64,000 nucleotides of DNA from Alloascoidea hylecoeti (Eukaryota), in assembly GCA_001600815.1 (NCBI GenBank), contig BCKZ01000005.1:743727-807726 (forward strand), given 5' to 3'. The position numbers were made by a program, and so were the translations under genes. The stretch's first letter is position 1, and every line of letters begins with the position of its first letter. This document shows, piece by piece, positions 37,383-63,269 of this stretch. The notes under the pieces are model-generated. The model was not told where the DNA came from, made no database searches, and saw only the letters and a program-made list of their open reading frames with translations.

Positions 37383-38959
37383 TTTAATAAAAATTAATAA
37401 TTAGAAAGAAAAATCTGAAAATTGAATGAAAGTGAAAAGGTAGAATAAATTTAAAAGAGTGAAAGTACTTTTCAATATATGTTAATGAAAAGTAGTGTAA
37501 AGATTTAATGAGGAAAATAATACTCCGGATTTCCTTCATTTTATATTCCAACCCTCAATGGTCCAAGCATAGTGAAAAAACGGCCCTAAAAGTCAAAAGG
37601 TATAGTATAGGTCTTACTTTCATTGTCCTGGGCCACAAAGTATAAAATACATTTTTTATGTGTTAAGCGGTCTCGGCCCATCCTACCCGCCATGGTTTAC
37701 AGGTATTTCACTTTACTTGAACAAGTCAAGTAATTGGATACATTCAAATTAAGGCCGAATCTCAATGCATATGTCCAAACACGTTTGCATGCATATTTTT
37801 TTTAAACTACGAGAAATCTTCTTAATTTTACCAGTAACACAGTGCCAACAAGGTTTGAGTTTTTCAAAATTTCGACCCAATGGAAAATATATAACTAGTG
37901 AAATGGCCTAGACTTATGTTGATTGATTCATAATTCGGTGGTATTCAATCATGACTTTTAAGTTACAACAGTTTTTTTTCATCTTTCCTCAAAATTACAG
38001 GCACAATTAATTACAACAATACTGCCTTTAATCATATAACATATCATTAATCATTAAACATACCATTATTCATATAACATAGCTACAGCTAAAGATGTTG
38101 GAAAGATTGAGTCCCCTTACATACGTCAAAAACTAATCATCTTGTTGATCTTCCTAGTATTTATATGCTTGTTTCAAACGCACGATCTGTTTGGTAATCA
38201 AGGTTTTTATATTCTTATTCTTAAGTATCTCTAAGGTTAAGTATGTCTGGGCATAACCAATTTATATAATGAAACCTTGAATGGCCATGAAATCGATATC
38301 AGTTATACTAGATACCTGGATAGATGTAGCATATTAGTAACAAATATTACATACACGAACGTTAACAACTTGTTTTTAAAACTAAGAGTCAATTAGTAAT
38401 TTCCATAGTATGATATTACATTCATTTGCGAGAAAAACAAACCTGCTGCTATATATGGCTATATAAAGTTGACATCAACAAGATTTATCGTTATAGGTTG
38501 TAATCTGAAAAAACAAGAAAATTGCAAGAAATTCAATTGTATTAGTTGTATAATTTCAATTGATATAATAATCAAAATTTATATCCGGTTATATGTATCT
38601 TAAAATGTTGTTCTGATTACAAATAATCATGCTTATAAACCTCTATAAATTTGATTAATTAGCGCTTCGCCAGGCCTAGGAGCAATGGGAGTTAATTTCA
38701 TGTATTGTTAATTAGTTACAAATAGCACAAGTAGTGTAAGATCTTATGTATGTTCCTTTCGCCAAAGGAAAATACACTCTCCTTTAAAAAATACAATGTG
38801 TAAAACTTACTTTCTTTTAAATCAACTACCACTTTGCCATGCCAACAAAAACTCAAAAAAAAAAGAGGTAAAGGGACAATTGACGTTTGAGATTAGATAA
38901 TGCCACTATTTACATCCAACTGAACACTAACGTAGCCAGTTACAATATTCCAAAAGATT

Positions 38960-40410
38960 TAGTTGTTCCCAGGTCTCAATAATAGGTAAAAATATTCCTT
39001 CAACCACGGAGTTTCACAAAACAAAACCAAAATATTCAAGATAGTAGAGCACGGTCTAGAAACGATCAAAGGTGGTTCTGTTGATAGATCACTATTATTT
39101 ATGATTGTTGATGAATATATCCAGGCACAGATTAATTCAACTCTACCAGGTCTAAACAGGTATGTGACCAATGGGTCACGACCACTTTGGATAGATCAGA
39201 TAAGATTTTTTTCAAGACGCCCCAGGTTACCGCTTCGTATACATGTTTTCCAAAGGACCGAGATAGCAAGCAATCCTGTTGTAAGTGATTAAAATGGTTA
39301 TGTAACAAATATAAATATAGTCCATGAAATATTTACTATGTAGATGAGACTGATTTTATTCATGGGATTATGTTGGAAACCCCATGAAGGAGTTGGTTCT
39401 AGTGGACCGTCCGTTTATTTGCTAGTTGATCCCCTCTAAAGGGGGACCACTTGTATTGGATGGGTTAATGTCAAAGTTTATTTTCTTTCCCCTATCCTTA
39501 TGGTTATTGTTAAATCAAAAAAAAAAACCCCCAGAGTTCATGGCTAAAAGTATCAGAGGGTAGTAAATGGTTTGTGACGTGTTAAAATAATCGATTTTTA
39601 TAATTCATCCTGCTTAATGAGCATGTTGATAAATAACTCCTTATAAAAATGGAGAAGACACTTCTTAATATTCTTATCCTTGGCGGGTATTCCAATCATG
39701 TAGAAATTGAAAGAAAAGTATGGTTGGCTTTTTGGTTCTCCCGGAACAGACATCGGAGGCGTCACTGTGGTAAAGATTAAAAAGACCCTATTAGTGACGA
39801 CTCACAAGTTGTAGATTTTTCTTTTTCTACTTGAAATAATAATTTCATGAAGGAACTCCAAAATTTCACTTAACAGTCCTAATCTCACCTATTACAAAAA
39901 GACTATTCTATTTAAATATATACAGTTGAAGGGTAAGAATATTAAGATAATCAAAAGAAAAACATATGGTTTCAAACCAACCTAATCATGAATCCATCCA
40001 TATATAATATATGATCCCAACAAGATAAGAGATAAGGAAAACGCCGCGTTTAAGAGTTAAAAGGGCCCAGATGGTGAAATAATACTTGATAAGGCGACAC
40101 ATAAAAAAACTTACAGTTAATCAGAGTGTGTGATATCAGTGGAAAAAGATAAGGCAACTACGTAAGATCGACTTATTGAGGAGGTGAATATGCGTACGAG
40201 GAATTTTACCAGATGAAACCCTGACCGGTTATTCACCTGAAAATATTATAAAGCTTTTTGCAAGGTGCTTAATTGGCGTAAAGGCAGTCATTGCAACTGG
40301 TCGTTGTATTACGGAAGATCTAGTACTAAGAGAAATGATTAAAGAAATACAATCATTTTCAAGGCAAAAGAAAAGCACATCAGTGTATCGGCGAAAAGAA
40401 TTCCCATAGT
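38960..40410 (+). pseudogene. Decayed coding element, copy B (unidentified; homologous to 33440-34400)
   Basis: Contains EHGLETIKGGSVDRSLLFMIVDEY, FPKDRDSKQSCCK*LKWLCNKY, KIRDKE and SVEKDKAT..EEVNM. Confidence 0.65.
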
Positions 40411-40656
40411 AGGGCTCCTGAAGAAGAGATTAACTGGTTTTCCACATAACGATCTATAAAAATACATAAGTCTATATTTTCTTAATTTAATTTTTTCCAA
40501 ATTTTGAAATTTGAAATTTGAGTTTTGAGTTTTCGGTTTTGATTTTCCCGTGCCAAGAAACATTATAGTGTAAGCCATCTGCTTTTTCAATTAAGTGAAA
40601 AGAAATGACGTATATGAATCGGTATAGAAAGTCATGAAAAGTTTTGTGCTTTAGTA

Positions 40657-40861
40657 CACGCCACTAAAAATGTACAACTTTTTCTAGGCCGAAATTTTGG
40701 TCTCTAAAAAATATGCATGCAACTGTACATAATACGCCATGAGGAAATAATGCAGACTTTATATGCATGCATTTATCTATATAAAGTAGATTATATGAAT
40801 GGTATGCACATGATTATGATTACATATTCATGATTAAAAGTTGTTCATTTTAAGTGGCGTG
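40657..40861. mobile_element. MITE, 205 bp, with 26-bp TIRs
   Basis: Left TIR CACGCCACTAAAAATGTACAACTTTT. The right TIR reverse-complements to CACGCCACTTAAAATGAACAACTTTT (2 mismatches). Flanks are TA and CA, the latter a probable mutated TA duplication. Confidence 0.75.
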
Positions 40862-42269
40862 CACCAATACTAATTGCTACAATTAAACTACGAGCTGCAG
40901 AATTGCACCACCATTTAATATGTATAGTGTATTGGTGCATATTCCCCAATAAGCTTACTAGTGATAGTTACATATGCAAACCTTGTAAGGTAATTAGTTA
41001 TTTCGTCTTATGATGGTTTAAATTTACCCAAGATTCATCAATGTAACAATGGACATAAAAAGAATTACGTACCAAATGCTCTATGTTTAGGGTGCCGATT
41101 ATTTCTCACCTTAGTTCCGAAATTTAAAGCTGATCATAACAATGTTAGGTCCAGATCCAAATATATCCTTTTACCGATAATTTGCCTAAATTAATCAGAA
41201 ACACTATACTTGTTAATCTAACAGATTCCCATGAAATTTAGAGTAACACTTAGGTGCTTGATTCATTTATTTAACTGATCGGCACTGAGGATCTCTCTCT
41301 CTTGTGTATGGCATACTAAAATTAAAGATTAATATATTATTTAACGTTAACTATAATCAATCATGTTGAAATTTTAGTTGAACAGAATAGAACGGAGCAT
41401 ACAAATAAATTATTTAAAGTGTTAGAGTGATGATTAGTAAGCTATGATATTTGGTTGTGTAAGATTTCGTTTTATTTACCTTTACATGTAATATTTTTGG
41501 TACCTTCGGTTTATAATTCATTATTGTTTACAGGGAGTTTATCTTGACCCAGGAGCCCATTAATATTAAGCTGAGTGGAACATGCTCCTGAGAGTCTAAC
41601 CCATTCATTTAGTAATTCGTCTTGAAATATAGTATATTTCTAGTTGCGGGAGCGAGAATTATGAATTGATTTACATAATCAATAATTTTCTAACTACGAA
41701 TCGATTTTAAATCTAATCTGAACTTTAATTAATAATTAATCAATCTAATTGGTAGCTTTTATAGGAAATTAATAACCTAATTAATATTGGTAGCTATTTT
41801 ATCGGACATTTAAACAGTTTTCTTTGCATCACCCTCTAAAAATAAGTTAACCAATGAGGTACTTCACGACTTTACTTAAAATAATTAGTGATTCCTTAGA
41901 ATATTCTCTCATTATCAAAGTGAATTTATTTATTTGACTAAAAGCTCTTTGGCGACTTGAAAGTCACTTGTGACGTATTTGAATAGTAGTAAACAATTTA
42001 GAAATTAAGTTAAGAATTTGTAACAATTAGTGAGCCGTATTTTTGATGCACAGCATGAGAAATGATTCTAGTCTTTCCATTCTTAGAATTTCTAAAAAAA
42101 CAACGCATCGCGTCAGGGAGTGTAGATGTTCTTTAAGCTATTGAACGCTCAACACCAGGCTATTCAGACGATTGAAATCCGTAGAAGAAATCCAATTAAC
42201 ACACCTCTGTCTATAAAGCATTTAGCATGCATTATGATGAGTGATCATCATGAATAAACACTGACAAGT

Positions 42270-43030
42270 ATCGCGAAAGAATCTCCGTAAAATAGTGTAG
42301 AGACACATACCATACTGCTATGGGCTCAGTCGATTTAAAGAGACACCGTGAAGTCAATAAGATTCCCCTGGAGGAGTAGCATAGTCACCGAAATAAATGG
42401 GTAAACCTACCCTGCATCATGAGTAGAGGAGGAATTTAAAATCATAATTTCTTCTGATGGAACCAGCAATTCCAAAAGTGTCAAATGAGTGACTCGTAGC
42501 CTGTAGAAAAATAGTTTCCGGCTCGTAAGTATAAAAGGAAAATCTAGAGGTCTGTGACTGATGCTTTGGAGATTCGTAGAAGATAACAGCCGACCCGAAT
42601 TTCACGTTTTTGATAACAATGTAAGAAATATATTTGGATGTACTTAAAGAGGCTTTAAGACCTCATCTGATTAAATATTTAGGAGTGGACTTCAGAAATA
42701 AGGTTATCCACATGTAAGCTAACACACAATTCATAAAACTAGCGATGTGATGGCGTAGTAAAGAGAAGAGGAGATTGAAGTGGTGGAGTGGCCGGCATAC
42801 AGACCTCAACCCAATAGAGAAGGTCTAGGCTAGGTGGAAGCGTCTGATCACGTATGAAAGGCCAGCCTCGGTGAAATTGCTCGAAACCAAGATGAAAAAA
42901 TGGATCAACTTCAGGTATACATTGAAAAGTCTTGTGGAAAAATCGATTAACAATTTTATTTAAAAGTTATCTGCTGAACGCCAAAGGTCGTGGAAGAAAC
43001 TTCTAAAAAATGGTGGTGGTCATGTGGCTA
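42270..43030 (+). mobile_element. Tc1/mariner (IS630-like DDE) transposase relic
   Basis: In order: FKIIISSDGT (first D, near 42456), a decayed second-D region, EVVEWPAY then a frameshift to DLNPIEKV*ARWKR (WPxxSPDLNPIE motif, 42789-42840), and terminal KNGGGH. Confidence 0.85.
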
Positions 43031-46000
43031 GAACTACTCAATTTATAATTCTATAAATAGCATGATTAGAAAGAGGAGATAAAGAACTTTTATTTCTCTT
43101 ATACAAAGCGTTTTTCTAATATTATTTTGTGTTATTTGTGGTTTAATAAAGATTTAAGTTATGGTGTTACACACAAATTTTTAGTGAATGAAGTGATGTA
43201 AAACATTATTATCGAATTGGTATACCATTGTATCCGCTACTTGCATGTAAATATATCGACCCGATTTATACCAATCACAACATAACATATTAAGTAGCTT
43301 ATATAATTGACTTTGTGGATTTTCTTAGATAGGTATATATATTTAAAGGTCAATCGAAAAGATGGTATTAACTGTTTTATTTCATACCCCTTTATTAATC
43401 AAGCGCTCTAAGATATATCCCCGCAACATGATGTGTTTGTCTGAATCAAATCACAACAATTGTATTATTCAATTCTTAATATCAGCCAATTAAAACACTA
43501 TTGGGTTTATTTTAAGTTAATTAGAGCATAAAATTTGTTATCTTCACTTTTTTTTTTTGAATGACATCCTTTTTCTCATTCTTTCACATCAGCCTAAAAA
43601 GTAGAAAACATAACGTAAGTGCAACATTTCAGAGCATAAAAATATGAAATTTCTCAACTGATTATATACATTTATATGATATTAAAAATGATAGTATTAT
43701 TTATATTACTCCACAATCCTTTGGTAAAATATATCCCGCAAAATATCTATAGGTACACAAGGTGTACAATTTGTACATATAACTCAATCCCTTTAAAATC
43801 AAATTACTGTTTACTTTTGCTTTCCCTCACTCGTCCCCCCATCACAAACCCTGGACTCTGCAGTGCTGATGGAGTTCTTCGCTGCATAAAAATTCATTTC
43901 TTAACCATTAAATCATTTTTAGGCTAATGTAGTGCTCACCACGGAATATGAAACCGTAAACATAAGATATAAGGGTTCTATTGACTAGCTTGAACTTTAC
44001 AACTCAGCATAGAATATATAGTACCGAACTATGCTGTTAAATGTTTGAATCTCATTTTCATTATTTTTTTGGGGGAATGGGTGATACAGCCGTATTCAAT
44101 GTGCATGTGTCTTCACTCACTTGAACGTGCAGGTTCGGCTATATTAAGCTTATATTTTACCGATCTTCCCAACGGTAAAACATTGCCGAATATTCTATAT
44201 TAAAGCATTCTAATTAAACTCGGACCTTACTGGTTCACGAATTTTCAGTCGTCTTATAATTACAGTTGGCCGAATAATATTCATTAAAATCGCTAAATAA
44301 CTTGCAGAAGTATTATAATTGTCTTATGAATCGCTACCAATATTAACTACAGGACTAATTTTTATAAAAATTACTATGGTTATAAAAAACTCTTAAACAA
44401 TTTTTTGATTAACAAAAAATTCGCCAATTAATTTACAAGCTCTCCACTGGTTTAGTAGGTAGTTATATATATGTGTATGCATATGTATAGCAAATAGAGA
44501 ATAAAATAAGCGGGATCCGGATCTAACATTGAATTGATACTTCACAATTGATATTAATATTAATCTTTGTCACCACAGATATCTAGCTAGGCATATCACA
44601 ATTTAACAGCAGTATTATTGTGCACAATCTAAACCGGCCTTATAAATTGTTAAATATAATAAACTACTTAGTACTTAGTAATGAATGTTTTCAGGTATGT
44701 AAAAGCTATATACCGGTATTGCTCTGTGAAAATTGACCCTTCTTTTAATTCCATGTATAATTTTAGTGGCTACTACAAATACCGATCAATGGTAAGCTAA
44801 GTAATAATATTAATTTTTTTACATGCATTATATTGTATTCTCTAATTCGTATAAGTATAAATTCAGGAGAAAATTTCTTCTTTAGAAAAAGCCCTACAAT
44901 TTACAAGTTTCGTAAAAGGTTGAATAAGCGGCAGACAGGTTTTTAAAAGTCTGGGATGATGTTAAATTGTTAATTCACGATCAAGCTTATATTTTTATGC
45001 TACATGTACCATTTATAATAAAAATTATATTCGATCAAATTAAATTGTAACTTAAAGGATTTCCCCAGCCTATATCTGCAATGACCCGTAACTACAAAAT
45101 ACCTTCTTAGCTCATATAAGCAAATAACCCATAATTTTCTCTGAATGGTTATCATGATTCATGATCACCTCATAATTGTATATTAATGCAGATCGCCAAA
45201 TTTCAATCAAAGGAATAAATGTCTATATATGGCGGATCAATTATAATTTTAACTACGCATGAACATTAATTATAAAGCTAGCTAGCAGATGATCAACCAT
45301 TAATTGTAAATGCAACTATAGAATTTGATTCGATTTGTACTCTTGGAGGATTAATAGCCAAATTATAAGCTTAAGTAAATGTTGTACGTACCAAGTAGGT
45401 AATATATTAATTAACATTATGAATCTCCTGATTAATAAAAAAAATAAGAGTAAAAATGTAATACTATACTATTATTATCTTTTTTAGTAAGTTGATTATG
45501 AAAATAAAGAAAGAAAGAGAGTTCACTGTAGTTATTTATGTTTATGCACGTCTACATATCATGCATATCAATTTTTTTGTTTTACTCACTATAATAGTGT
45601 AGTTAATATTTATGGAATTATGCCTGCTAATTATATTACTTGTATATTTTTCTCTAATAATTGATATTATTTGAAAAGCATGGCCTCCAGCTATTATTAA
45701 TGTTATGAATATATACCAGTGTATAAGACCTTATAGATTTAGCCCTATATCGATCTACAAAAAATATTCAAAACTTAAAGTTTCAATTAGGAAGTAAAAC
45801 CTACATAAAATTGCAATAATATAATTTATAATTATAAGCTATAGAAAAGAAATACTCTAAGAAAGATGATATACAGTATTATACACAAACTATTACACAT
45901 ATATATTTAAATATATTGTGTTTTTTATTTCCACTATCGAATGATGGAGAGAAAAGGCTTTAAATTAATTATAACTGAATTGAGTTTCTTCTCATTTATG

Positions 46001-46053
46001 ATTTGTTTCGTCTTAAAGCTATAACAGCTTATATAACAAAGCATGGATTTTAA

Positions 46054-46093
46054 CTTCCATAAGGCTTCCATAAGGCTTCCATAAGGCTTCCAT
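46054..46093. repeat. 11-bp tandem repeat (CTTCCATAAGG) x3.6
   Basis: Read directly from the sequence. Confidence 0.9.
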
Positions 46094-47061
46094 GAGATAC
46101 GAACCAGGTTTTCCTTCCATGGGGGTATAAAAAAACCCATATAATATAAACTTAGGACTTTATGCATTCTTGCGTATTGTATGCAGAGTGAGCAATACCA
46201 AATAAGGAAACACGGCTGTCTGTTAACTTTTTATTTACTTGAAAATTGTCGTAAGGTACAAACCGTACAATTATATGTAACTAATAACTGTAAATAACGG
46301 AGATATTTAGTTGATTTGAAATTGACAAAAAAATACTAATATATACAGAAATCTGTAATTTGAGAGATATATATTTATGATAAACTTGCAATTGTCACTT
46401 TGGTGATCACGATCATTATACTAATTAATTATAGCATATGTATATATATCCCTCAATCGAAATCATTCAACTTCCGTAGACCTCCATGGCCCATTAAGGG
46501 TTCTTTTCGAGTTTCTTTAAATTCCATTGCAATTAGTTATAGTTACTAAACATTGTAGTTAAGATCACTAGAGCTAATATAACTGATATTGCCAAGCCTA
46601 ATAATGACCACGCTACTTCACAAGTTCGAACCTGTGATATTGATAATTATAAGAAAGCAGTGTAGAGTTCGAAAAGCTTTTATATTTGTTAAATACGTGC
46701 AATTACAGGTTTTCATCGAGTAGTATTATAATTATAATTATTAAGTATACTGTCTAATTAATCAATATGACACTTATTAAATAATAAGATAACAATTATG
46801 ATGAAAATAATAAGCGGAAGCTCAACTAATATAAGTATAACTTAATAATTCAAATAAAAAACTTAACATAAATTTTTAAGGTGATTCAGGTTTAAAAAAA
46901 CCTGTTTATCAATTATAAATTTAAAGCCTTAAGTTAGTTTTGTAAGGAAAAAAAAAGAGAAAATTTTATTCATTATCACTATCTAAATATACCTAGATTA
47001 AATAAAAATCAAGCCAAAATTTTGTGTAGTACTTTTCAACGTAATTTTCTTTGTTCTTTAA

Positions 47062-50000
47062 TTAAATACCCAAAGATCGAAGAGGTGGTAGTTTTATCCG
47101 ATGATTCGGTTTGGAATTATTACTTGTAGAGGAAGAGGAGGACGATCTTCCAGTTGATAAGTCTGGCGGTGTTGATATAGAAGGCCTAGGAGTTATAATT
47201 GATGGAGAATTAATTATACCATTAATATTATTGACATTTGATGAAAATGGAAGTGAACCCTGTGTATTTTGAAAATTTTGTTCTTGGAGTTTCTGCCCTA
47301 AGAGATATTCATCGTTTGAACCTCTCATAATAATATGGTTGTTTATACCATAACTAGAAGTCTGTTGTTCTTGTTGTTGTTTAAAATGTCTAACCATTTC
47401 TCCAGAAGGTACAATGCTCTGTACTTGCATTGGTTGCTGTGGTATCTGTAAAGATTGAAATTGCTGTGTGAATAAAGAATTATTCTGTTGTTGTATAACC
47501 CCAGATTCATATGTAGGATTTGGAACTGATTGTCGTTGTTGGTGTTGTTGTATCAATGGTTGGTGTTGTGGGTAGATCAAACTTACACTTCTTGATTTGA
47601 GTCTATCTAAGTTTTCACTCTCAGCAAAACCATCATTTGACCTTTTAAGATTATTTTGATGAAACTGTTGTGAAATACCAAGATACATTGGATGATATAG
47701 TTGAGGTTGTGGAATATAAGTCATATTCTGAATGGGGATCATGGTTGTATCTGGACGGTATAACCTTGTTTCCTGCGTAGGTAAATAACCTGGAGGTTTC
47801 CGTAAAGAACGATTACGCGCTTGTTTAGAACTATAAAAGAGCGGTCAATATTAATAATTCAAATTGAAAGATTAAGAGGGAAAATCTAGTTCCGTACTTT
47901 TTAGAAGTGTCTTTTCGTAATCGTAGTCGTACACCTTGCTCACAAACTAATTTAGTTAAGTTTGTTGAAGGTAGTGAACCAGTATATCTTTTTGGAGTGA
48001 AAACTATATGGGTTAACAATGTTAGTAAATTTTCTTGCGCCTAGGCTAATGTGGAACAATAAAGGCATGTCACTTGGTATTTAGAGATCTAGAATCATCC
48101 CAGTATATTGAAAGATGATCTTGAAACCCAGTAAATTTAACCATGAATATGATGACCTCTTGTTTCAAAAGCCTTCAAACAAGCACCATTGTATAAATAG
48201 AATCTAAAAAATAGAACTAATGTGACTTACCAGTAAAATAACTAGATATGTTAGACACTTTAAATGTGAATCCAATATCCCTATATTTCAACATGTTTAG
48301 TGAGTTTTCGATCATGATAATTTTAGCTTTGAATTCAAAGTTTATATTATGCTTACTCTTGTTCATATAGAGAAAACTTTAATCGATATTCTCCAATGCT
48401 CATCATTGATAGATCACCAAAAACAAAGTAAAATCCTGTTTGTTCTTTATATTGCACTTTATGGCCCGAAGAAACTCTTACACCAAGTAATGGATAAGAT
48501 GAGTTAAATCTTTTATCGATATTATTCAAAGATTGTGAATCATCTTCATTATCCCCACTATCCTCATTTTTGTCAATTTCACTGATATCAGCTTCCTCGT
48601 TAACATCAATATTGTCTTTATCCGTTATACTTGTATTCTTCTTTTCTTTTCCTTTTCCTTTTCCTTTTTCAATCTCTTTTTGTTCTTTCTCCCTCTTTAT
48701 TTCTGTTTGTTTTTTATCACCGGAGGTCCTCTTTTTCTTTTCAGCTTGATCGTCAGGTTCCTTCAAGATCTCACACATAAGTAAAAAAGTCTTTTCAAAT
48801 AACCAAGGAGGAGTGTATTCTAAGAAAAAAGAAAAAAGTTTGAATATTTTCTGTTAATTTAAGCCTATAAGTCAATATAAATTAATGAATAAACAAACTA
48901 ACCCTTTGAAATCTCGTCATCTTGTAGCTCCACCGAAAAATCACTGTCTGTAACCGGAATGCGATTCCTCATCACCGATAATCTCAATATTGGAGGGGGA
49001 TCAATTGACCTTCTATCAGATAGACCCCCTTTGTCAAAGCATGATGAAACCTTACAATGTATGGGCTCTTGCATGACTCGTAAACAATATTGTGGTTTAC
49101 TACGTCAGAATTTTGTTAGTACATTTGTATCCTTTCATACAGCATTATGAAAAAAGAAGTAACGAATCTAAGAATTAATCATAAGATCTACTAATGGTAG
49201 AATAGTTCTATCATTATTTTGAGAACATACCTTTTATCTTCATCATCTGACAAGGCAACTCTACCACGGTGTGCAGTTGAATTAAAGGACTCCATAGGCC
49301 ATGGTGTATTATTGTGGCCGTATACATCACCAAAATTTCTTTGTGATTGTTTATCACCATCACCATTATTAATACGATTACGAATGTGCATATCTTTAAT
49401 TGACGAGAATGGTACAAATTGATTATTCTGAAAATTGTATGCCGATGGCATTTGAGTATTATTCTGATTTGAAAACATTACTTGAGGCTGAGGCTGTCCA
49501 ACAATGTTTGAAGAAGCTGGCTGAAATTGTGAATAGTTAACATTCTTATTACTATATTGAGCTGAAGCTGATGGTGCCATAGGTAATGAATTTGATGTCA
49601 TGGAATTATCTGGGAATATATTCGGTAATATTGGAAGTTGTGGATGAAGAGTATGCTCTTGCTGGTGCTGTTGAAAAAAATTGTTCTGTTGTCTGTCAGA
49701 GTTTGGAGGAGACTTATTTATATATATGCCCTCCTTACGAACGACACTTTGATTTGTATTTTTATTCATATGATAATTATACGAGTGTTGATCATAGCTC
49801 AACTGAGGTTGGAACTGGGGTGGATTTGATTGGATCTTACTATTCCTGTTGTTTTCTTGTGTAAGATTTGGGTCTAATCGTGGGTGGTCATATACTATGG
49901 AAGGAATTTGCAGCTGATTAGGGGTATTATTATTGCTTTGTAATACATTGGAAACTAAAACCTGCGATTGAACATTTGAATTGGCATGAATTGTTCCGGT

Positions 50001-50078
50001 ATGATTCAAAATATCCCTTTTCCCAATTTTATCATTTATGGTAAATTTGGATGCTCCGAAGATATTTTGTTCAGTCAT
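47062..50078 (-). CDS. Velvet-domain transcription regulator (VosA/VelC-like), about 810 aa; exons 50078-49231, 49099-48903, 48819-48357, 48280-48231, 48003-47898 and 47830-47062
   Basis: Five GT-AG introns join six exons into one 2433-nt frame. Velvet motifs are YCLRVMQEP, DRRSIDPPPILRL, LLGVRVSS, GFYFVFGDLS..IGEYRLKFSLYE and FTVFTPKRYTGSLPSTNLTKLVCEQGVRLRLRK. Confidence 0.9.
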
Positions 50079-53000
50079 TTAAAATCTATAAATACCGTGC
50101 TTAGATGTAGTATTGTATGCTTAATGTTGTAAAAGGTTATGTTAACCAGAATTTTTTCACCTTCCTTCTTCTTAAGATTTATTAGTTGGTCTCTTTAAAG
50201 CTAGGAACAAGAAAACAAAAAATTCAGAAAATAATATAATTGTAATCGTAAATGATAATTGATGATTTATGATTTAATTTAAGAGTAATTGAATGCTTTT
50301 GTGTGTTTCAATATAATTGTATTTTTGCTTGTGACTAAAGTAACGATCTGATTTTATCAAATAAGAGTGAGACAACAGTCAATAAAGGGATATATAATAA
50401 ATATATATATATATATATAAAAAAACAGTATTGGTATATATAATAGAGGTGATTTTTGTAAAGTGACTTAAAAGAAGATACGAACAACCAAAGAATTTTT
50501 ATAATTATATTATAATGTTAACGGTGTGAAATATATGCATACTTTAGGATAGAAATGTAAATTAATTAATGTGATATAAGTTCCAGAAGACATAAAAAGT
50601 AGGAAAAAGATAAACTCGAAGACGGTTGAAAATGAGTATACTCTTTTTGTTTTATGTCTTTTTTGTTGTAACCTGGGAGAGGTAAAAAAAAAAATCAGAA
50701 AAGGATGAAGTTGCAATTGGAAACTTAAACAAAAAAAGCCAAAAAATTAAATAATAATAGTACGGAAATAAAAAATTAATTTTATTTCTTGATCAATTTA
50801 AAACTTCAAAAGGATTTCTGAAAGGTTAATAATAAAATAAATTTAAAGATAAAAATTTAAATCTATTCTGTTGCAAGAAGAAGAATTATATAATATATTC
50901 AAACACGATCGATGAGCAGACAATGTGGTGCGTATGCGCAATAATGTGTAACACGGTGCGGGTCGATGTATAAGTGCTGTACTGACAGAAAACGATGGAG
51001 CTATTCGAGGCGAATTCACACATAAGTAATGCTTTTCAAATCTAAAATAACGACGGGAAAATTCGCACTTTCCAAAGGGCGTATCACACAGAATTTCAAA
51101 GTAGAAATTTAGAGGCGAAACGGATTTATTAATTAGCTAAATCCTTATTTTCTTTTCACGAGCACATTTCCCGAAGCCGCACGGAAGGCTGCAATCAACT
51201 AAATAGTCTGCGGCTACCGCTTTATCGTAATCCTAATGTAAGAGATGCATATGCATGAATACTTCAGGATGTAATCAACCAAATTCTTATTACAGGTTTA
51301 AAACTTATATATGTTATTTATATCATCTGATTGGTACATGAACCAACAAAAGCATAGATATCAAGCCTATCTAATAGTATCTATTAATTAAAATCATTCC
51401 CGATCCATTATAATGAATCAAAGGTAAGAAATTAATTATGTACTTCTTCATGATTTGCAAATAATTGATTGTAATTGCGAGTAAATTATAATATTGATTT
51501 AATATTTAATATTTAAATATTTTTTGAACATATCTGTACTCACCTTACTTATATTATACGCGGAATCAAATCATTTTAGGATATAAGCAGATAGTGACAC
51601 AGGTCATGGTGTCAAAAACGTGTATCAGCCCTCCTTATAACAAATTCTCTACCTGATATCCTAGGTGACACATGAATATGACACTCGTTGACACATTTAA
51701 GACGTAAAGAGGGTGGAAACATAAATAGTGAGTATCTTCATGAACAGAAATGTTTCTTAGGTATAAATGATGCAGAATTTGTCAAGAAAGGTGAATAAAA
51801 AAGAAAAGAATAGATTCAGATTCACATACATGCTAGGCCAATAATTAATGGTCATTAAGTATGGCGGAGTATGTTTTGGTATCAGTATTAGTATATTCTA
51901 AGACTGCCTTATAAGTTTGTCCAGTCTTATTGTTATAATAATTCCTATATATATTTTTTACAACATATATCCCGATTTTAATTTTATAATTGGCTGTAAT
52001 TATAATGATTCGCTGATCATTTAATTTCCTTTTGCATTCATAAGTAAAATCAATTTATTGGTAATTAAATAACTTAATGGGATTGGAATATAATAATATT
52101 TCCATATTGTCTAAGACATGAATTCAAGGTAGAAAATATAAAAAATACTGCCATATATGCACTACCTACATACTATTACATTGCATCCTATAAAAATTTC
52201 TGTCAAATGGTATTAAAATTACTTTTAACCATGATATATCTGTATTATAAGTTTAAATTGTATGTTTATTCAAAGTTCAACATTAACCGATCGTGAGAGA
52301 CACAACACTAATGAAATTGCACGCATAAGATCGTGTTGCTAAATGTAATACGAATTTGCAAAATTCTAGAACCTATTTATAGATACACCAATGTATATAA
52401 TATGAGAATGGTTCGTTAAGAAATGTGTGACAATTGATGAAAAGACTTGATCGTGACTCGTGAGACATATTTGTACTGTATCAAAGTATTATGGCTAGAT
52501 CGAACAAAATGCAAAATTGTATTTATGGTTTATAATTATATCCGATGCTTTCATATTTTTCATATTAATTAGCAAGTACTAGTGGTAGTGAAAGTGTTGT
52601 TGAGTATATAAATATGTTGACGGAAATGTTAAATGCACAGAAAAAGACACTTTAATGATTAATTAATGGGTCGATGAATGCACTGAATACTCTCCCTAAA
52701 TACATTAATATGGTAATATGCCCAGATCCATATTTGTTAGTAATATTAGTAAATATAGGTTTGCCAATATCAATCAAGCAACGGAAGGGAGATTCCGAAA
52801 TTGGCTTTTCAATTGACTTATAAGAAAGTTATAACTAATAACTAATAACAAAATGCTCCTATAGGAAAGAATTGACACGGAAAAGAATAATTAGTTAATA
52901 ATAATATAATAAAATTATTCATGTAATTGTAGAACTGTGGATAAATAAATAAACAAACTAATTACAACTATATTAATTAATATCCTTAGTAACACCTCTC

Positions 53001-56000
53001 TTTTTTCCTTTTTGTAAATCCTAGGCCTATTGTAGATCTAATTGAATTATACTTGAGATATTCACTGATATAGTGAGACAATTATCAAAAACTACTCAGA
53101 CCCCAAGGCAACTCCAATAGCAGAAAAGAATGAGAATATATTATAGACTCACTCAGTGAAGTCAGGTCGATCTTATTGAAACCCGTATATTAGAATTTGA
53201 TACCGTATCCACAGTTTAAATTTAATGGGCCAGCAATCAGAGTCTTTGAGACATCACGTTCGTTGATTATTAACATTCCTGGGCTCTTTCATAGTTGGAA
53301 GAAATAACTGAGTTTCCCGACAGTAACTTCTTAATAATTAAAGGGGTTGAGCTAATTATATCATATAGAATTTGCATGTATTAAATTTGATACCTATAGC
53401 ACATATTTATATTCTGCCATTTTAATAGTTTAACATTTTACCTCCTTTATTTCACTGATTGCTCATTCAATTTCTAGCATGTTGACATGGTAGATTTTGA
53501 GCTTCGGCTTTCCATAGCTGAAACTGTCACCCTATACCGGTATAGCTGACAGTTTACTTTTTTCACTGAAGCTTTGAAAATATGCATAGAAAATAACAGC
53601 AAACCAATAAACAAAGGAACGGTTACTTTCACCTTAAGTTTGCTACAGTATTAAGTCACTTATAGCTTTAAATTTTATATAAATAGCATTCATAAGCTGC
53701 ACATTTTCTGATCATTTGATGGTGAACAGGATATGTTCGAATTAATTTTTTATCTCGATCATCAACTAAATTTCGATACTAAAATTGTTAAAATTAGTGA
53801 CGAATATTAATTATAAATTTAGAAGCATATATATGCAATGTTAAAATTAGTTAATGAGGAATACATTTGCTGATCAATGGGAAACTGATTTTATGGATAT
53901 ATATCAACAAGAACAGGAACAAAACTAAAGATCAATCACACTGATCAATACCACTATTTACAAGTAAAAAGTTGATATATATATTTAAAGAATTGCAAAT
54001 AATAATATGGAATTGAGGTCGCGTTTAATTTAGACGAATCAGATAGCTTCCAGCACTCGATCGGTATCACACATGCAGGTCTAGGGCGATATAAATTTCT
54101 ACTTATAGCTGGTTCGGGCATACTATATATGCATTCATACAGCATTAATATTTATATAGAGCGAGATAAGGCTTTTTTCTATCACTATTTCCTTCTTTTT
54201 GGGATATATAAGTTATATGTAATGCTATTCAATTCGCAAATAAAAGCATAATAAATTAAGTTTAATAACTATAATTAACACTAGTATCAAGCTTTAGCTT
54301 AAGATGGTTTATATTTTTAAATATTAGCTTGATATTAAGTAGTCGGTAAGATGTTAATATTCTCAATAGAAAATGTTGTTGTCGTCTGCAATAATACTGT
54401 AATGGGCACCATCGGTTAGTGGTACCGCAACGGTTAATTTTAAATTCTACCTGTGTATGCGTCCCATAGGTAATATTTATATGGATATAATTATGCCTAT
54501 ATCTCTACCTTTACCTAAACCCGGCTTTGTGCATATGCATCATAAAAGTAATAATAACGATAATATAGAACTTGATATACCTATTTGAAAACCATATGAA
54601 TATGACTATTACTGAAGATATATATTTATATGAAATGTATATCGCTATAGATTTAGAACCAGTAAAAAGCATAAATACATTAAACCGTTGATATATATAT
54701 ATTTATCTTTCTTAAAATTTAACCACTAATGCATTGCAATTGTATGTGTATAAATATTAGCCAGAAAAGGAAGATATTTCTTTTCCTCTCAAATACAAAA
54801 AATTCATAGTTATTCACTAGAAATAAAATAGAATTTATGGCTAATGTATAGAAAGTTATAAACGGCTAATTTTAATTTATTTTACCGCCTAAACTGACTA
54901 TATAGTACTTCTAGAATTATATCAAATCTAAAAATCTTACATTTGAGAAACTTTCCTAATAGATAATGCAACAAAATTAATATTTATATCTACCCTAGTT
55001 ATTGATTTTGTATAGTTTAACATTTATGTATTCATAGTGGTAGGAACAATTAGACTAGTATAATATAAGGTTTATAAACTTCAAGAAGCGCTTAAGTTAA
55101 AGATGGACATACATCAAACAATATATCAATATCAGGATCACTGACTAGTCTATGTGAATATGAAAAAGTCAATTTCAATTACATTATTCTAGCTAATTGA
55201 ATTTTGAAGTATTCAATTTTGTGGGAAGGCTACTCAAATGCAATTGTAGAGGAATTAGCTATATAAAAGAAGATCAATATTAATATCAGACCACTATATG
55301 TTAAACCCCAATAAGCATACCTTAATATAATATATATATATGTTATATATGTATGTATTAATCGGGTTTATCAATATTATACATTTAATCACAAAGCATA
55401 AGTTTAGAAATAAAAATTACAAATTAGTATATACTTGAACCTGAAACTTGATTATTTATCTAGAATATATAAAGAATCTTAATTATATCAATATTATCTT
55501 TAATTAATAATATATAACTTCTAATGAATCGTAAAATATTAAAAATCAACTACTAGTCGACAGCGGAGTAGTCAAGGTATGAATTATCAAAAAGAGCTTG
55601 AGGTTATTCGAAACAGGAATATTAGTAAAAATTAGGAAAGTGCAGCACTACTACTAGTGTATAATCACGTCTGTATTTAAGTCATTGTAATTAATATATA
55701 TTGAATTCATCTTTCTAGAAATCATCCACAGCCCCCTAGACCCCATATTACACGATTTTATTTCGATATCAAGTTTGATGTTTGCAATTGAAAGATTGAT
55801 GTGTAATATATTATAATCATAAAAAATTGCAATTATTTATATACTAATTATAATCATTTCTAAACCTAAAAGAGGAAATATTTCCCAACTACCTCTCCAC
55901 TCATGATCAGAGACATTTTAATTTAGTAACTAATTAATATAACTCAAATACAAAAAATATATTCAGTATGAACACAAAATTCCTGAGGTTTCAGCGATGG

Positions 56001-56504
56001 ACATTTATGAAATATCACAATTAAATGATTTCAAACAGTTGGAAGTTAAGACTTGTGATTCTAACTTAAATTAATACTTCAAGCTTAGATCAAGTCGGGA
56101 TGGAATGTCCAGTGTTAGGTCAGTGGAGTATTTAAATATATTTCATCAATAATTAAGTGGATGATGCAAAATTTATGGAATGTATGTCAGCATACAACAT
56201 ATTTTGAATAACTTCATAGCTAAAAATACAGACTAGAATATGTTTATTCACATCTTTGAATATCATATTTCGATGAGATTTTAACTTTTCTATAGAATGC
56301 AACCAGTACCAGGATTACGTTATATCTATATAATACTTTCCTTGAATTAAATTCAATAAGCTGTGGCTGGGTATAGGGTGTAAAAGTGTGGCATTTTCTT
56401 ATTCTTTTAGATTACGCGCACCAATAAAAGCACACTAGCACATTTATGGAATCAGTTACATGAAACAAAACAGTTTCAAAGAGTCCTATTTAGATTTATT
56501 TCTA

Positions 56505-56722
56505 TGGTGCGGGACACTTAAAATGAAAAACATTTAGAAACATTAAAGAAGTAAGCAGAATACTGCAAAATCACTTCAATTAAATATGAAAGACGAAAAG
56601 ATTCAGGTTTTCCATTTAACTACCTTTCATTGTCTCTAATTATTTAATTGAAGTGATTTTGCAGTATTCTGCTTACTTCTTCAATGTTTCTAAATGTTTT
56701 TCATTTTAAGTTTCCCGCACTA
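56505..56722. mobile_element. Tc1/mariner-type MITE, 218 bp, with roughly 80-bp TIRs and a TA target duplication
   Basis: TA|TGGTGCGGGACACTTAAAATG...CAATTAAATA is mirrored by TATTTAATTG...CATTTTAAGTTTCCCGCACTA|TA with only a few mismatches. Confidence 0.9.
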
Positions 56723-59700
56723 TATAAGAAACCAAACTACATACAAGTATAAGGTATACTGCAATTGGTACTACGTTTCTTTGTTAATCATGGCAGCATC
56801 CACATGTCTGGGTGACTGCATTCTACTTTGAGACTTCAATAAAAGAAGGTGTAACATTTTTGGAGCTTAAGATGTATGTTTATCAGACTTGAATTTAACT
56901 ACCAACCTTTAAGATCAATATTTCAAGAGAATAATTAGTTATCTAGTATATATAAATCAGTATATCAGTATCATTATGGCGAAACTCACCCAAGAACATG
57001 GCCATGATATAATTAAGTATACTAGTTGCCGTATAAAATGGAATTCCATTAGAAATCTAGATATATATCTAGAATATTTTGTATTGAGGCATATTTCTGT
57101 TTAATTAATGTGTATGTAGTAATACTAATACCGGGAAGTGATATTTTTTTCTTATTTGATCAATATCGATAAAAATTTATTTATGTGATTTCAACATCGA
57201 ATTCAAGTTGCCTATAATTACATAGTATGGGTTTTTTTTTCAAAAAAATATTATATACTTAATATTTAATTATCATATTGGGTAAGTATTGATTGCGGTA
57301 ACACTTACAAATATTAACATTAATACGACTTTCTTTTGAAATGTGACCGCTAATATACAATGTACAATTGAATTAAGCGAAGTTCATTTCGGTATACTTC
57401 TTCAAATTTGACGTATCTTCATTGATTCATTAGATTATAATAGGGATCGAGGCCAACTATCCGGGTTGATTCAAAAATTAAATGTATCTCTGATTGAAAA
57501 TGATGATCACGACGCATTATATATATAATGGTATATATTAAGTTTTGAATTCACAAACATTAATAGCGATCGGTCCACCTTTAAGCTAAAATAAAAGTGA
57601 CTGTAAAACAGCTGTGTTATTTTTCTTAAACATGTAGAATATTTCTCATTGCAATTGTGACCAGTTTTGAGCTTATTCCTCTTCCCATGCATTTGTCTGT
57701 TCCCCCTTTAAGGCCTATTCTCATCAGTTAGCTAATATAACAATTCCACTCTTTCGGATTATTTTTATAAGCTTATTTTTATAATTGGTTCAATAGTAAT
57801 GTAATTATCTTTTAAATCTATTGTAACTTTACATGCTATGAAGATCATTCAAAGAGTAGTAAAATGAAAGTATATGGCGCAGCTTCCGATATGGGAAACT
57901 TACCTTGAACTAAATGTCAGTTACATACATATGTATTCTTAAAAACTTTAATTTAAGCTTCGAATCCCGTTTATTTTCCAATGTGTTTAGAAAATAAACA
58001 TCAGTTGCCTATATGTGTACTACCGGGTGCGAGGCGCGATATTAATTATAAGAGAAGCTTTGTACATAAAATACATCGTTTAAAAAATTGAAACGATTTA
58101 GATTTGTCTTCTTACCAAATATTTATAGATGTGCTATTGTAAGGACAAAAGCGGCTAAATATAGTTGGGAAATGAAACACCAATCAAATGTAACTATTTC
58201 ACAATAATATATATATATATATATGTATATAGCCCATATATCTATGGTATTCGTACTTCCTCAATTATTAATTTGGATACAAATTTAACATAGGTAGAGG
58301 CAAATTAAAATTTTAAAAATGAGAATATCAATGCATTTTGATTAAGGTACAATTTGTTGTAATTATTGTTTATAAACAAAGATATATGTTTTAGTGATAC
58401 CCATACATAATATACGATATAAAATAATAAATTCAACAGTTTTTAAAGAAAAGAGAGAACAAAGGAAAAGAGAAAACAAAATAAAATAAAAGAAAAGAAT
58501 CTTTTGGTGCTGAAATCACTACTATTGGCATCATTTACAGCAATATTTTCCTTAAGCTTCGTATAAGCCTTTGATATATTAGAATTCCATAGACCTGAAT
58601 ATATAAATATAACTTACACTTACAGCCTAATAGATCCTAATCTATAATCTGTACGAAGAAGCAAGGAATAAGAAAGTTTTAAGAGGACATAGAGTATTTT
58701 AATGTCTCTTTTTCTATTTAAAATTTATTAAATATATATCTACTGTCTTAATAATGTTTCAATATTACATATGCCTAGTCATATAGAAATATATAGATAA
58801 ATCATATAAGTAGGATCCTAGATGTAGCTTCTAGTATTCGAAGTTGAAAGTGATAATGTCCTTTCATACCTTGGTTTGTTGCTTTATATCGTTCATCTCA
58901 CTGCATATTTTAGACTAACATATAGACCTATATAATTATAAGATTATATTAGGTTGCTGTTTATAAATAGCTAATATATATGACCGTTAATAATAGCTAG
59001 TTATATATTATTTTTAAAATTAAGCACCCTAGTATATGCCATCATGGTTCTAGGTTCCGAGTATATATTCAAGCACTATATGAACGTAAATGCTAGTAAA
59101 CCTGAGCTTTCGCAACGCCACAAATACCACATAGCATATATCGTGCTAGCATGAACGCTCAAATTATTTTCTGAAAAATAGAACAGAAATGTGTACAAGT
59201 ATTATGTATTACAATTATGGGGACTCTTTAAAAGCTTTGTAAATGCTAACGATATCGCGATACAGTCGATGAAGACTACTCTTAAATTGTAATTAAGTTA
59301 TGAAATTTGAAATGCAAACTTAAGTGATCTTCAACCTCCTCCTATTAGAGACAGATATAGAGAATCGGATTATATACGGTGTAAAGTAATTTATATAAAA
59401 ATTAAAAGATTTAGCTAATACTTTTTCTTTAAATGACCCTTTTTTTCTTCGAAAATTTTGTGATTAATTACTAGATTTTATAATTATAATGTTTAGATTT
59501 GTGCTGCTAATGTTGTGACTCAATTGTGACCCAATTACGATTGTAGACTTTTGTTAATTGTTATTTATATTCATGACAAAGTTCTTTGAATATTGAAAAT
59601 TTTAGTAAGTGGACATTGTGTACTCATAAAATATTAATAATCACAATAGCCAAGCAAGAGACATATTCTCAACAAAACTATCTTTCAATAATCTCCGAAA

Positions 59701-61898
59701 CTTATTTTCTAATTAGTAGACTATGTATAAAACTAAAGTTATCCAATTATAATTATATAAATTCTAGGGCTGGGAGTTTCAAGAAATTGAATCTTCATAT
59801 ACGTTGTGTTCTTCCAAGTTTGTTTAATCATCATCAATAAAAAAAGCTGGAAATATTTCCCTTTCAGAATAGAAACTTTTCATCAAAATCAAAAAGAGCA
59901 GCAGGCACCCAAAACAAATTTGAAGTGAGCCAAAGTATACCTGTGACCTAACGTTTACATATTTTAGATCCTTAATAACCATTAGGACCGTATATTAAAT
60001 TGTTGGGAAGCTGTTCCTCAAGGCTTTCGAATTCGTGATCATAATCAGGCGAAGAATCTGTGGCAAACTCTCTACCCCGTTTAAACTTAATAACAAGTTG
60101 ATAAATACCCTTCTCTTATTTCTTTAAAAACTAACGTATGCTCAACTCTAGTTAATCATTATCATGTTTCTTCTAAGATAGAGGCTGTGTCTAGGACCAA
60201 AAACTCAAAAAAAACAACCCCCTTCTTACACTGATACAAAACATTATTTATGACACAGTTACGAAAATACTTTCCTACAATGAAAGTCTTATATTATTAT
60301 TACACCCAAGTTTAAAATTGGCATTGATGTTTTAATCTCAAGTTGTTCTCTAGATCCAGATCTGTTTAACTATGGAGAATCCTATAGCTATAAAAGCATC
60401 AAAACCTTGAGCAAAGTGGCTACAACAATGGAATTCTTTTCTTTATATTACCAATAAGTTTTAAACCTTAAGCTGTCTATAGCCTGTTTGATATTTAAAA
60501 TATCAAAAATAGATCAAATACATTAAACTTTATACAACAATGACACCCATTTCTTTCCATGTTTAACAGTTCTCGCCCAATAAAATGGACTTACCTCATG
60601 CATCCAGCTTTCAAGTATTCTACTATCTATTTAAATGATATTGTTTGAGGACTACTGGTCTATTATAGGAGTATTACCCTCATATTGTCACAGAACCGAA
60701 TACTAAATTACCATGACCAAGAGCTAATTATAACTATACACAGACCAACTAGATCTACAATTTCAAGGTAGCATTGTGATGGCTTAGAAGTTTTAAACTT
60801 TAATGATATCATTGATGGTTTGAGCATAGTATCAATCAGATTAAGAAGTTGAAAAGAAAACATACTTGTTTAGATTGATGATTTCATATTTAAAATTCAC
60901 CAATTACATATACCTCTACTTCTTAAAATGGAAAGCTGAATATTACTCTATGTACGCAAGGGGAGTAAGGATATTTCACCTTTGAATTTCAAGATAGCTA
61001 AAGGCCGCAGGGAAAAAGACACAATGAATAATAAAAAATGTCTTGATTAACGTTCTTTTATCGCATATATCATGGGAAAAAACACATCAAAGGAAACCTA
61101 AGCTGCTAACGCCATTAAAATATTATTTGATATTTGGGATCATTAAAAGCCTTTGAAGTTAATATTCATGTTAAGAATTCTAGTCTACACATATCTAGAT
61201 ACCGTTAACATCGCGGTCACATTTATAGTATTATTGTGTTGATGTATGTGATTCAATTTCATTCTTCAGAGTGCCTTAGAATTTTTATTTTCTATTAACA
61301 TTGGAATATAAATATAATCAAGAATTCTCACAGCGGCTGTTGTTTTCAGCAGTTAATTATCTATCTATAGACTTATTTTAATAAGTTAAATACATTTGGA
61401 ATGTGAAGTAGTAGTAGCGGATTTCTCCACTTTCGCTTTAGCTGTAGCCCAACTGCAATCCAAATTAAAATAGTTTGCAGCGTGGGTAACGTTTAGCCGG
61501 ACAATGCGTAACTTACATCATTAGAAGTAGCTGATTAGAATTATATACATAATAAATTTAAGAGTGTTAATTGAAATTATATCTAGTTACGGAGAGTTCC
61601 AGCTATAATTAGGTTTGTTTATCCCTCAATTGGTGACACTTTTAATTTGCAATTGCAACTCACTACTACACTGTAATTGTATGGTATTTTATTTCCCAAT
61701 TATGATGTATGCATATCAACATTGATTGCAAACCATCAGAGCGTTACGCATAATACAACTAATGTAAGATTAAAACGTATGTGTTATCGTGAAAATCATT
61801 CTTGAAATTGGTGATTATCACAATAAAGATTAATAAATGAAGCAAAATGCATTGGTCGGTAATTGAGTTTTAGATTTGTCCGTTACAAGTTATACAAA

Positions 61899-61965
61899 AC
61901 ATCCGTACAACTTTACATGCCACATTTTACGCATGTACCTATATATGCTGCGGCATTTGTGACTG
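61899..61965 (+). promoter_or_regulatory. RPP1 promoter: Rap1-type box ACATCCGTACA (61899) and Homol-D TGTGACTG (61958)
   Basis: Matches two known ribosomal-protein promoter elements. The same arrangement lies upstream of RPS16. Confidence 0.7.
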
Positions 61966-62139
61966 TTAAGTCCCATTAAGGAAATAGTTTTAATATTTCC
62001 CAAGTGTCATTTCTAATCCTCGAAATTATTCAGCGTCAACACCATTAACTTGATTTAAGGACTAGTCTGCTTCAACATAAGCTTAAACGTGATTATTCCA
62101 ATCAAACATCTGAATCTTCAAGAAAAAATAATCTAAAAA

Positions 62140-62639
62140 ATGTCCGCCGAAAATATCGAATCTTCTTTGTCCTATGCTGCTCTCATCTTAACTGATGCTG
62201 AAGTTGAGGTTACTTCTGAAAAGTTACAAGCTTTAGTCAAGGCTGCTAATATCCATATTGACAGTGTATGCATAACTATATCTCTCAAATTGAAATGTTG
62301 AAATTGAATATTACTTTGGTTATGGTATATCAGTTGCTTCATGCTGATTATCATTCTAATAGTATTATCTAATTTAATAAACTTCGAACACACAACGCAC
62401 CTTTTAGTATAAATTACTGACATCTATTTTAGATCTGGGCTGATATTTTTGCCAAGGCTTTAGAGGGAAAGAATCTAAAGGAACTCCTTTTCAACATTTC
62501 CGCTGGTCCTGCTGTTGCTTCTGCTGGTGGTGCTTCTTCCGGAGGTGCTGCTGCCGCCGCTGAAGAAGCTGAGGAAGAAAAGGCTGAATCAGAAGCTGAA
62601 GAATCGGATGATGATATGGGATTTGGTTTGTTTGATTAA
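62140..62639 (+). CDS. RPP1: 60S acidic ribosomal protein P1; exons 62140-62265 and 62433-62639
   Basis: [17 protein letters not shown]...[13 protein letters not shown]...[13 protein letters not shown]. The intron has GTATGC, TACTGAC and TAG. The ORF track misses this gene. Confidence 0.96.
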
Positions 62640-63040
62640 AATGTCTGATTTTATGTAATATATGAACATTTGAGATTTATTGTTAATGTCTATGGGGCAA
62701 TATTATTGTGATGGATTATATAACTACATTGTTAATCTAACCATTTAAATCAATTACAAATGATACTAAAAGTGAAATTGTAGATTACCTATTAGTTTAA
62801 TTTGTAATGTTATCCATATGTATATAAAATATCATGCTCATGAAGGGTTTTATTTTCTATAGTACTGATGATTATATTATGCAACTTTACAACTCATGAT
62901 TATCATAGTGTATTGCACTTGTGTACATGTATAACTTATATTCTTTTCACCTATTCATAACATTATTTTCGAATAGAAGGAATTGCTATCTTCTTTTACA
63001 TTTATTACAGAGCTTTTCACAGAATTGTTTTGATAGAAAT

Positions 63041-63121
63041 AAACCCATACATCTAGAATTTCCTAATTAGGTGGAAATGTCAGAAAGCATTCTACGATCA
63101 AAGTTATATGTTTTGTGACTG
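63041..63121 (+). promoter_or_regulatory. RPS16 promoter: Rap1-type box AAACCCATACAT (63041) and Homol-D TGTGACTG (63114)
   Basis: Same order and similar spacing as upstream of RPP1. Confidence 0.7.
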
Positions 63122-63269
63122 CCAAATACCATAAATGGCAACTACGTATGTGTTATATCCAGACTGTCAGCGTAAATATCAGAACCTCTGATGCTCAAAC
63201 ATCAAGGACCATACCGAAACTGAAAGCCAAAGGAAATAATTCAATTTATCAAATAATTAAAAGGTCAAA

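Follow-up and report, generated by a model that had tools for sequence, protein, structure and literature searches.

A probable VosA-like velvet factor with a charged insert, encoded by a six-exon gene of the budding yeast Alloascoidea hylecoeti

We report that a 64,000-nucleotide stretch of Alloascoidea hylecoeti DNA (the window) carries a spliced minus-strand gene whose product we take, with moderate confidence, to be an intact and fast-evolving VosA-like velvet transcription factor. Most budding yeasts have lost velvet proteins, and one that has kept a VosA-like factor makes it possible to test velvet roles where conidiophores and secondary-metabolite clusters are absent, in a family whose function has barely been studied beyond moulds (PMC7539958). 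The novelty that the first-pass annotation attached to a velvet gene in a budding yeast does not stand, since Saccharomycotina velvets have already been catalogued in all four classes (PMC10845976) and the occurrence of a velvet protein in such a yeast is therefore already known. The features discussed here are the following.

50078-49231, minus strand: exon 1, with the predicted start ATG at 50078 and a 282-aa arm rich in N, Q, S and P that matches no Pfam family above cut-off
49100..49230, minus strand: intron 1, 131 nt, GTATGT..TACTAAC..TAG
49099-48903, minus strand: exon 2, carrying velvet motif 1 with the DNA-binding loop and K299, R312 and R313, plus the greater part of an insert of about 18 aa, identified by Pfam (33.6 bits) and PDB alignments
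48820..48902, minus strand: intron 2, 83 nt, GTTAGT..TAG, its acceptor agreeing with the orthologue and its donor the least certain site
48819-48357, minus strand: exon 3, beta-strand 3, charged insert and velvet motif 2, identified by Pfam (39.2 bits) and the orthologue P0002
48494..48772, minus strand: loop from strand 3 to motif 2 (aa 365-457), exceeding its VosA counterpart by 76 aa, with a basic and then an acidic half, at the site of the VelB disordered domain
48281..48356, minus strand: intron 3, 76 nt, GTAAGC..TAG, its donor position agreeing with the orthologue
48280-48231, minus strand: exon 4, 50 nt, a linker of VosA length and the last strand (F509, equivalent to VosA F145)
48004..48230, minus strand: intron 4, 227 nt, GTAAGT..TACTAAC..TAG
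48003-47898, minus strand: exon 5, velvet motif 3, terminating in QGVRLRLRK, identified by Pfam (27.6 bits)
47831..47897, minus strand: intron 5, 67 nt, GTACGG..TAG
47830-47062, minus strand: exon 6, a basic stretch, a Q/S-rich arm and the stop codon
47071..47091, minus strand: LPPLRSL, aa 802-808, resembling LPPIRSL of the Mig1 481-504 repression domain
50079..63260, no strand assigned: ORF-poor upstream region of about 13 kb, shared divergently with RPS16, a candidate extended regulatory region

Family membership was assessed by running the Pfam Velvet model PF11754 (237 positions, 25-bit cut-off) separately on the six exon-containing frames. Three of the six, those of exons 2, 3 and 5, scored above the cut-off, and their matches cover model positions 1-38, 52-177 and 205-236 in model order, so that motifs 1, 2 and 3 follow one another within one spliced frame. 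The velvet identity proposed in the first-pass annotation is thereby borne out, and the Q/N-rich arms it described on either side are present in the translation as arms rich in Q, N, S and P. Its complete velvet domain is indeed complete, but two inserts, of about 18 and 76 aa, interrupt it; the domain occupies aa 287-552 of 810 (about 266 aa) and is followed by a further 258 aa. Residues K299, R312 and R313 align with R71, R80 and R81 of VelB, three positions reported as essential there, and all three are basic, a lysine at the R71 position being found in just 4% of velvets (PMC13389560). The phenylalanine cluster F72, F136 and F145 of VosA (PMC3876986) is matched by L361, Y500 and F509, hydrophobic residues at the dimer-core positions. 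A shallow, two-sequence model of exon 3 (pLDDT 47.6), too weak to bear on the seven-stranded beta-sandwich of velvet domains, places four strands around an unstructured stretch and found no Foldseek match, and the ESM Atlas confirmed the family and added nothing beyond it. When the 64-kb window was searched by tblastn with five velvets, the locus was the sole match, and the velvet circuit that the first-pass annotation envisaged for the lineage remains a hypothesis.

The six exons join into an open frame of 2433 nt, encoding 810 aa plus a stop, with no internal stop codon. Coordinates and frame agree with the six-exon, five-intron gene first proposed. Each intron begins with GT and ends in TAG, none of the five has a length that is a multiple of three, and TACTAAC lies 22-24 nt upstream of the 3' end in introns 1 and 4. 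It follows from these lengths that retention of any of introns 1-4 would truncate the protein before or inside the domain (predicted products of 295, 349, 503 and 523 aa, respectively), and retention of intron 5 would yield 576 aa, with the entire domain and no C-terminal arm. Automated calling does fragment the gene, as had been anticipated: exons 1 and 3 are stored as separate pieces of 295 and 141 aa in the protein collection.

To evaluate the junctions, all frame-keeping GT/GC-AG pairs lying within 70 nt were scored by homology. The junction originally chosen obtained the top score for introns 1, 3, 4 and 5 (17, 8, 12 and 11 open pairs, respectively), introns 3 and 4 winning clearly and the donor of intron 1 and the acceptor of intron 5 leading by less than 1 bit. 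The chosen junction of intron 2 was outscored by five alternatives and tied with one, so that its donor relies on the GTTAGT consensus. Spliced products and 200 domain shuffles were also scored against an HMM built from three VosA-clade proteins. The full product reached 108.4 bits and the product of exon-4 skipping 57.3, compared with 2.4 for the best shuffle. Exon 4 has no Pfam match by itself, and once spliced it can be laid against a VosA-clade protein in a gapless alignment. Three metatranscriptomes from the same study, searched with positions 44100-64000, returned scraps of 18-39 nt and no splice joint, a result with no bearing on expression.

Relatives were sought by a full HMMER search of exon 3 against 1.84 billion representatives (E ≤ 0.001). 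It returned five matches: the gene's own piece, the orthologue P0002 (E = 1e-16), two chytrid velvets and one protein, P0003, that bears Sushi repeats and was dropped as a chance match. The near-identical annotated orthologues across many yeasts that, according to the first-pass annotation, would remove the novelty did not turn up, one of the five matches being a close orthologue. Searching a word index with exon 3 brought up 543 candidates and with exon 2 seven, none of them a relative; two metagenome scans (48 and 89 pattern matches) confirmed none, and a profile search started from a poorly aligned input alignment yielded five proteins out of 7,994 candidates scored. The chytrid proteins P0004, P0005 and P0006 contain repeated velvet-domain segments, in a family described as having one velvet domain per protein (PMC10845976); P0005 and P0006 have long identical stretches in common, so these may be gene-model or assembly artefacts.

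P0002 is 39% identical to exon 3, with GVRVSSGHKVQ (11 residues) and GFYFVF invariant. It begins with EY at the exon start and ends after YEQQ, where exon 3 of the window ends after YEQE, which implies, judging from the P0002 protein, that introns 2 and 3 occupy the same place and phase in its gene. Invariant blocks and matching exon ends at 39% identity indicate, at the level of sequence comparison, a gene that is conserved, spliced and under purifying selection. These observations bear directly on whether the locus could be a decaying or unexpressed relic devoid of DNA binding. Such a relic would account for an identity to VosA-clade domains of only 35-38% (aligned columns) and for the altered DNA-binding loop; it would sit poorly with 811 codons free of stops and frameshifts, with five canonical introns and with a distant orthologue that keeps the motif blocks and exon ends, and we consider it highly improbable. 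On the same sequence evidence we hold with high confidence that the gene encodes a functional velvet factor.

The next question is the subfamily to which such a factor would belong. Scored motif by motif against the three velvets of solved structure, motif 1 favors VeA (19.8 bits, with VelB at 14.7 and VosA at 10.4) and motif 2 favors VosA (28.7, with VeA at 19.2 and VelB at 13.6), the latter order being retained with a two-sequence profile (27.1, 17.5 and 15.8 bits for VosA, VeA and VelB). Motif 3 places VelB (19.1 bits, over a stretch that extends five codons into intron 5) above VosA (15.5), VeA being unlisted because the VeA construct ends early. Summing the best stretches gives a modest lead to VosA, with 54.6 bits, 47.4 for VelB and at least 39.0 for VeA. 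This mixture, with a different subfamily on top for each motif, agrees with the first-pass view that the protein does not fit one subfamily cleanly.

The linker that follows motif 2, encoded by exon 4, is in sequence the clearest subfamily character and is VosA-like. It aligns without gaps to P0007, a protein of the VosA clade (260 bits against VosA, 60 against VelB and 54 against VeA), and 16 and 24 extra residues are required to match VelB and VeA, respectively. A hand count over motifs 2 and 3, a split picked after looking at the data, gives 12 identities exclusive to VosA and three exclusive to VelB (p = 0.035), and 13 against seven in the comparison with VeA; over all three motifs the counts are 15 versus nine for VelB (p = 0.31) and 18 versus 13 for VeA. 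The VosA-like GVRLRLRK terminus noted previously is also found, motif 3 ending in QGVRLRLRK exactly as in all three ascomycete velvets fetched, a match that is partly circular because words from the velvet gene itself had served to recruit the three VosA-clade proteins.

Two VosA features fail. The domain is neither N-terminal nor uninterrupted. VosA loses DNA binding when K37 and K39 are both mutated (PMC3876986); here the positions aligned with these lysines are occupied by G and S, neither of them basic, in a loop that is four residues longer and holds one lysine in a shifted position. For these reasons we use the term VosA-like and stop short of filing the protein as VosA. Given a functional velvet factor, descent from the VosA lineage appears quite likely from the sequence characters above.

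The best score of motif 1, the second place of VeA in motif 2 and a loop within one residue of the length of VeA's would suit a highly diverged yeast VeA (Sac-VeA), which would have lost the VeA linker, gained an N-terminal arm and served as scaffold of a VelB-VeA-(LaeA) complex. Sac-VeA, with 31 members, is one of two clades that dominate in yeasts (PMC10845976), and VeA and VosA are sister clades (PMC6231087), so their signatures may blur. We nevertheless regard a VeA identity as quite unlikely: the 24-aa VeA linker is missing, VSSxH and FGDLS agree with VosA and not with VeA, and the position of the domain is not N-terminal.

A highly diverged VelB, in which the disordered segment would be an inherited intrinsically disordered domain, has to be weighed in the light of the charged insert itself. 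From the strand-3 cysteine to the motif-2 glycine there are 97 aa in the window protein, 70 in P0002 and 19-21 in all three VosA-clade proteins, and the VelB disordered domain of 99 aa occupies this same interval (PMC12614781). The inserts of 76 aa here and 49 aa in P0002 fall inside the range reported for VelB, and P0002 aligns to VelB without gaps up to the start of the insert, with a lysine in register and then a serine-rich run, in an alignment that scores 0.0 bits. VelB also outscores VosA at motifs 1 and 3, and Sac-Tap-VelB is a dominant yeast clade (PMC10845976). In both orthologues, however, the insert boundary has K or R in register and lacks the VelB histidine, and the 16-aa VelB linker, QDLS and KIPIRK are likewise absent. 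Taken with the 12 to three identity count in favor of VosA, and with the description of VelB as the shortest and most conserved velvet, unlike this divergent protein of 810 aa, these differences make a VelB identity very unlikely.

If the protein is VosA-like, as we favor, there remains the meaning of its extra segments. The loop contains 48 charged residues out of 93 and is predicted to be unfolded, in keeping with the exon-3 model, a weak one resting on two sequences, which leaves the insert unstructured between strands. A paper of 2025 holds such a disordered insert to be exclusive to velB genes and to select the VosA partner (PMC12614781), and the insert described here provides a natural experiment on both parts of that claim. 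A selected role for it is possible rather than probable. The alternative shares our reading of the identity, a functional VosA-like factor, and differs in treating the insert and the tail motif as low-complexity sequence that an AT-rich genome has accumulated neutrally in an otherwise ordinary divergent member. The two inserts differ in length and composition and are unlike each other, the stretch separating motif 1 from motif 2 is described as variable in sequence and length (PMC10845976), the chytrid velvet P0004 likewise has a long insert at the site, and other genes in the window contain N- or E-rich runs. Set against this are the presence of an insert, with a basic cluster, at the site in both orthologues and its absence from all three ascomycete VosA-clade proteins. 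We give neutrality close to an even chance, in which event the gene would be one further divergent member of the family.

The C-terminal LPPLRSL agrees with the Mig1 motif at six of seven residues. The pattern LP[PS][ILV]xx[LIVM], defined after the motif had been seen, occurs once in the 7,057 residues of 15 window ORFs, at the velvet C-terminus, and in none of the six full-length velvets fetched. The corepressor of Mig1 is Cyc8-Tup1. Mig1 is listed as binding a single corepressor (PMC10163088), and RcoA/Tup1 has been tied to SclB and not to VosA (PMC6078315). That the tail might recruit Cyc8-Tup1 is suggested by this resemblance, and we put its chances just short of even. The DUF2722 protein of the window (9669-9700, minus strand) likewise ends in an LPP peptide, KLPPLLPKPI, which falls outside the pattern.

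Upstream of the gene (13.2 kb, 50100-63260) and downstream of it (9.6 kb, 37400-47050), ORFs are no longer than in shuffled DNA, and these stretches yielded no Pfam match at cut-off among their 14 longest frames, no Rfam family and no tRNA. The first 11 kb of the window are tightly packed, with spacers of 27-1146 nt between the first six genes. Yeast developmental regulators typically have long upstream regions, and small spliced genes in the upstream stretch are possible. No more than 520 nt ahead of the velvet ATG are two short candidate upstream ORFs on the minus strand, of 27 codons (50593) and 11 codons (50540); RPS16 lies at 63621-63998. Short repeats in the velvet flanks were put down to chance. 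A MITE-like element at 56500-56727 has 87-nt terminal inverted repeats (95% complementary), a 54-nt spacer and TA flanks, possibly of the Tc1/mariner type; a 32-nt remnant resembling its end is found at 40835-40866, and an 11-nt unit forms a short tandem array at 46054-46096.

Pfam-supported neighbors within positions 1-37400 are a protein kinase, a carbonic anhydrase, COG6 (a frame of 1015 aa with N/E-rich runs), a DPH1-type protein, SHQ1, the DUF2722 protein, ASF1, LUC7, a TLC-domain protein and a SUN family protein. Two overlapping MFS permease-like frames at 15427-16082, split by a frameshift or an intron, may be a pseudogene, and four long ORFs lack a Pfam match (18733-19836, 24719-26689, 27062-29218 and 31352-33187); by eye, 24719-26689 has a J-domain-like HPD end and 31352-33187 a bZIP-like basic region. 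ASF1 (about 23015-23990) shows three apparent introns by eye, an unusual density for a budding yeast. The budding-yeast host proposed from the letters is supported by the ASF1 protein, which scores 213 bits against the 279-aa yeast Asf1 chains, the next fungal chains reaching 153 and 123. The window has 30% GC (GC3 0.06-0.31). CTG accounts for 14 of 578 Leu-box codons, and the velvet gene has a single CTG, outside its domain. The yeast Luc7 residues facing the five CTGs of LUC7 are V, K, Q, Y and L, with no Ser or Ala among them; on codon comparison the standard genetic code is weakly favored.

A working mechanism can be outlined in conditional terms. As a homo- or heterodimer, the factor would use its motif-1 loop to bind promoters. 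With this loop both longer and less basic than its VosA counterpart, the DNA specificity may have shifted. The charged insert would loop out of the fold and, like the VelB insert, might tune stability, partner choice or nuclear entry. The terminal LPPLRSL could recruit Cyc8-Tup1 and so repress targets, and the Q-rich arms may activate as well. By analogy with VosA, its targets might lie in spore maturation, in trehalose and in the scheduling of hyphal or sporulation programs. The full proposal, a VosA-clan yeast velvet with an independently acquired, kept and working insert at the VelB site together with a Mig1-type Cyc8-Tup1 tail, is unlikely as a whole. Were it true, a VosA core and the partner-selecting feature of VelB would reside in one polypeptide, possibly without a VelB partner, velvet control would be plugged into a yeast corepressor, and the stated VelB exclusivity of the insert would be broken. 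Independently of it, the case shows that a velvet survey relying on annotated proteins can overlook yeast genes that are rich in introns and unannotated.

Among known systems, the closest parallels are Aspergillus nidulans VosA (PDB 4n6q; PMC3876986) and the VosA/VelD-clade proteins P0007, P0008 and P0009, which have in common with the window protein VSSxH, FxFGDLS, the short linker, QGVRLRLRK, the hydrophobic dimer-core positions and a long low-complexity C-terminal arm. Unlike VosA, whose domain is N-terminal and uninterrupted, the window protein has a 282-aa N-terminal arm that places the domain in mid-protein, inserts of 18 and 76 aa, no basic residue in register with K37/K39 and the LPPLRSL tail; its domain of about 266 aa compares with a mean of 166 for Pez-VosA (PMC10845976). 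A. nidulans VelB (PDB 4n6r chain B; PMC12614781) likewise carries a disordered insert after strand 3 and ahead of motif 2, and R80/R81 and the preceding Asp are kept, but here the boundary His and the VelB linker are missing, motifs 2 and 3 are of VosA type and the insert is rich in K, E and D, not in serine. VeA (PDB 9i2s) provides the best match to motif 1 and a long DNA-binding loop with one lysine, and differs in its long linker, its motif-2 signature and its N-terminal domain. In VelC the domain is C-terminal after a long N-terminal arm (10.1101/627414); an arm of this kind is present here, but 258 aa extend past the domain. With S. cerevisiae Mig1 481-504 (PMC10163088), from a DNA-binding protein whose DNA-binding domain is unrelated, the similarity is LPP(I/L)RSL close to the C-terminus. 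In the open-access literature, a scope outside which most subscription papers lie, we found no report of an insert at the VelB site, or of an LPPLRSL tail, in a velvet of VosA type. Compared by description, the nearest published group is Sac-Tap-VosA (Saccharomycotina/Taphrinomycotina), a VosA-type clade in budding yeasts that is minor and outside the 21 major clades (PMC10845976); the gene described here probably belongs to it, and its members may already include long, insert-bearing proteins.
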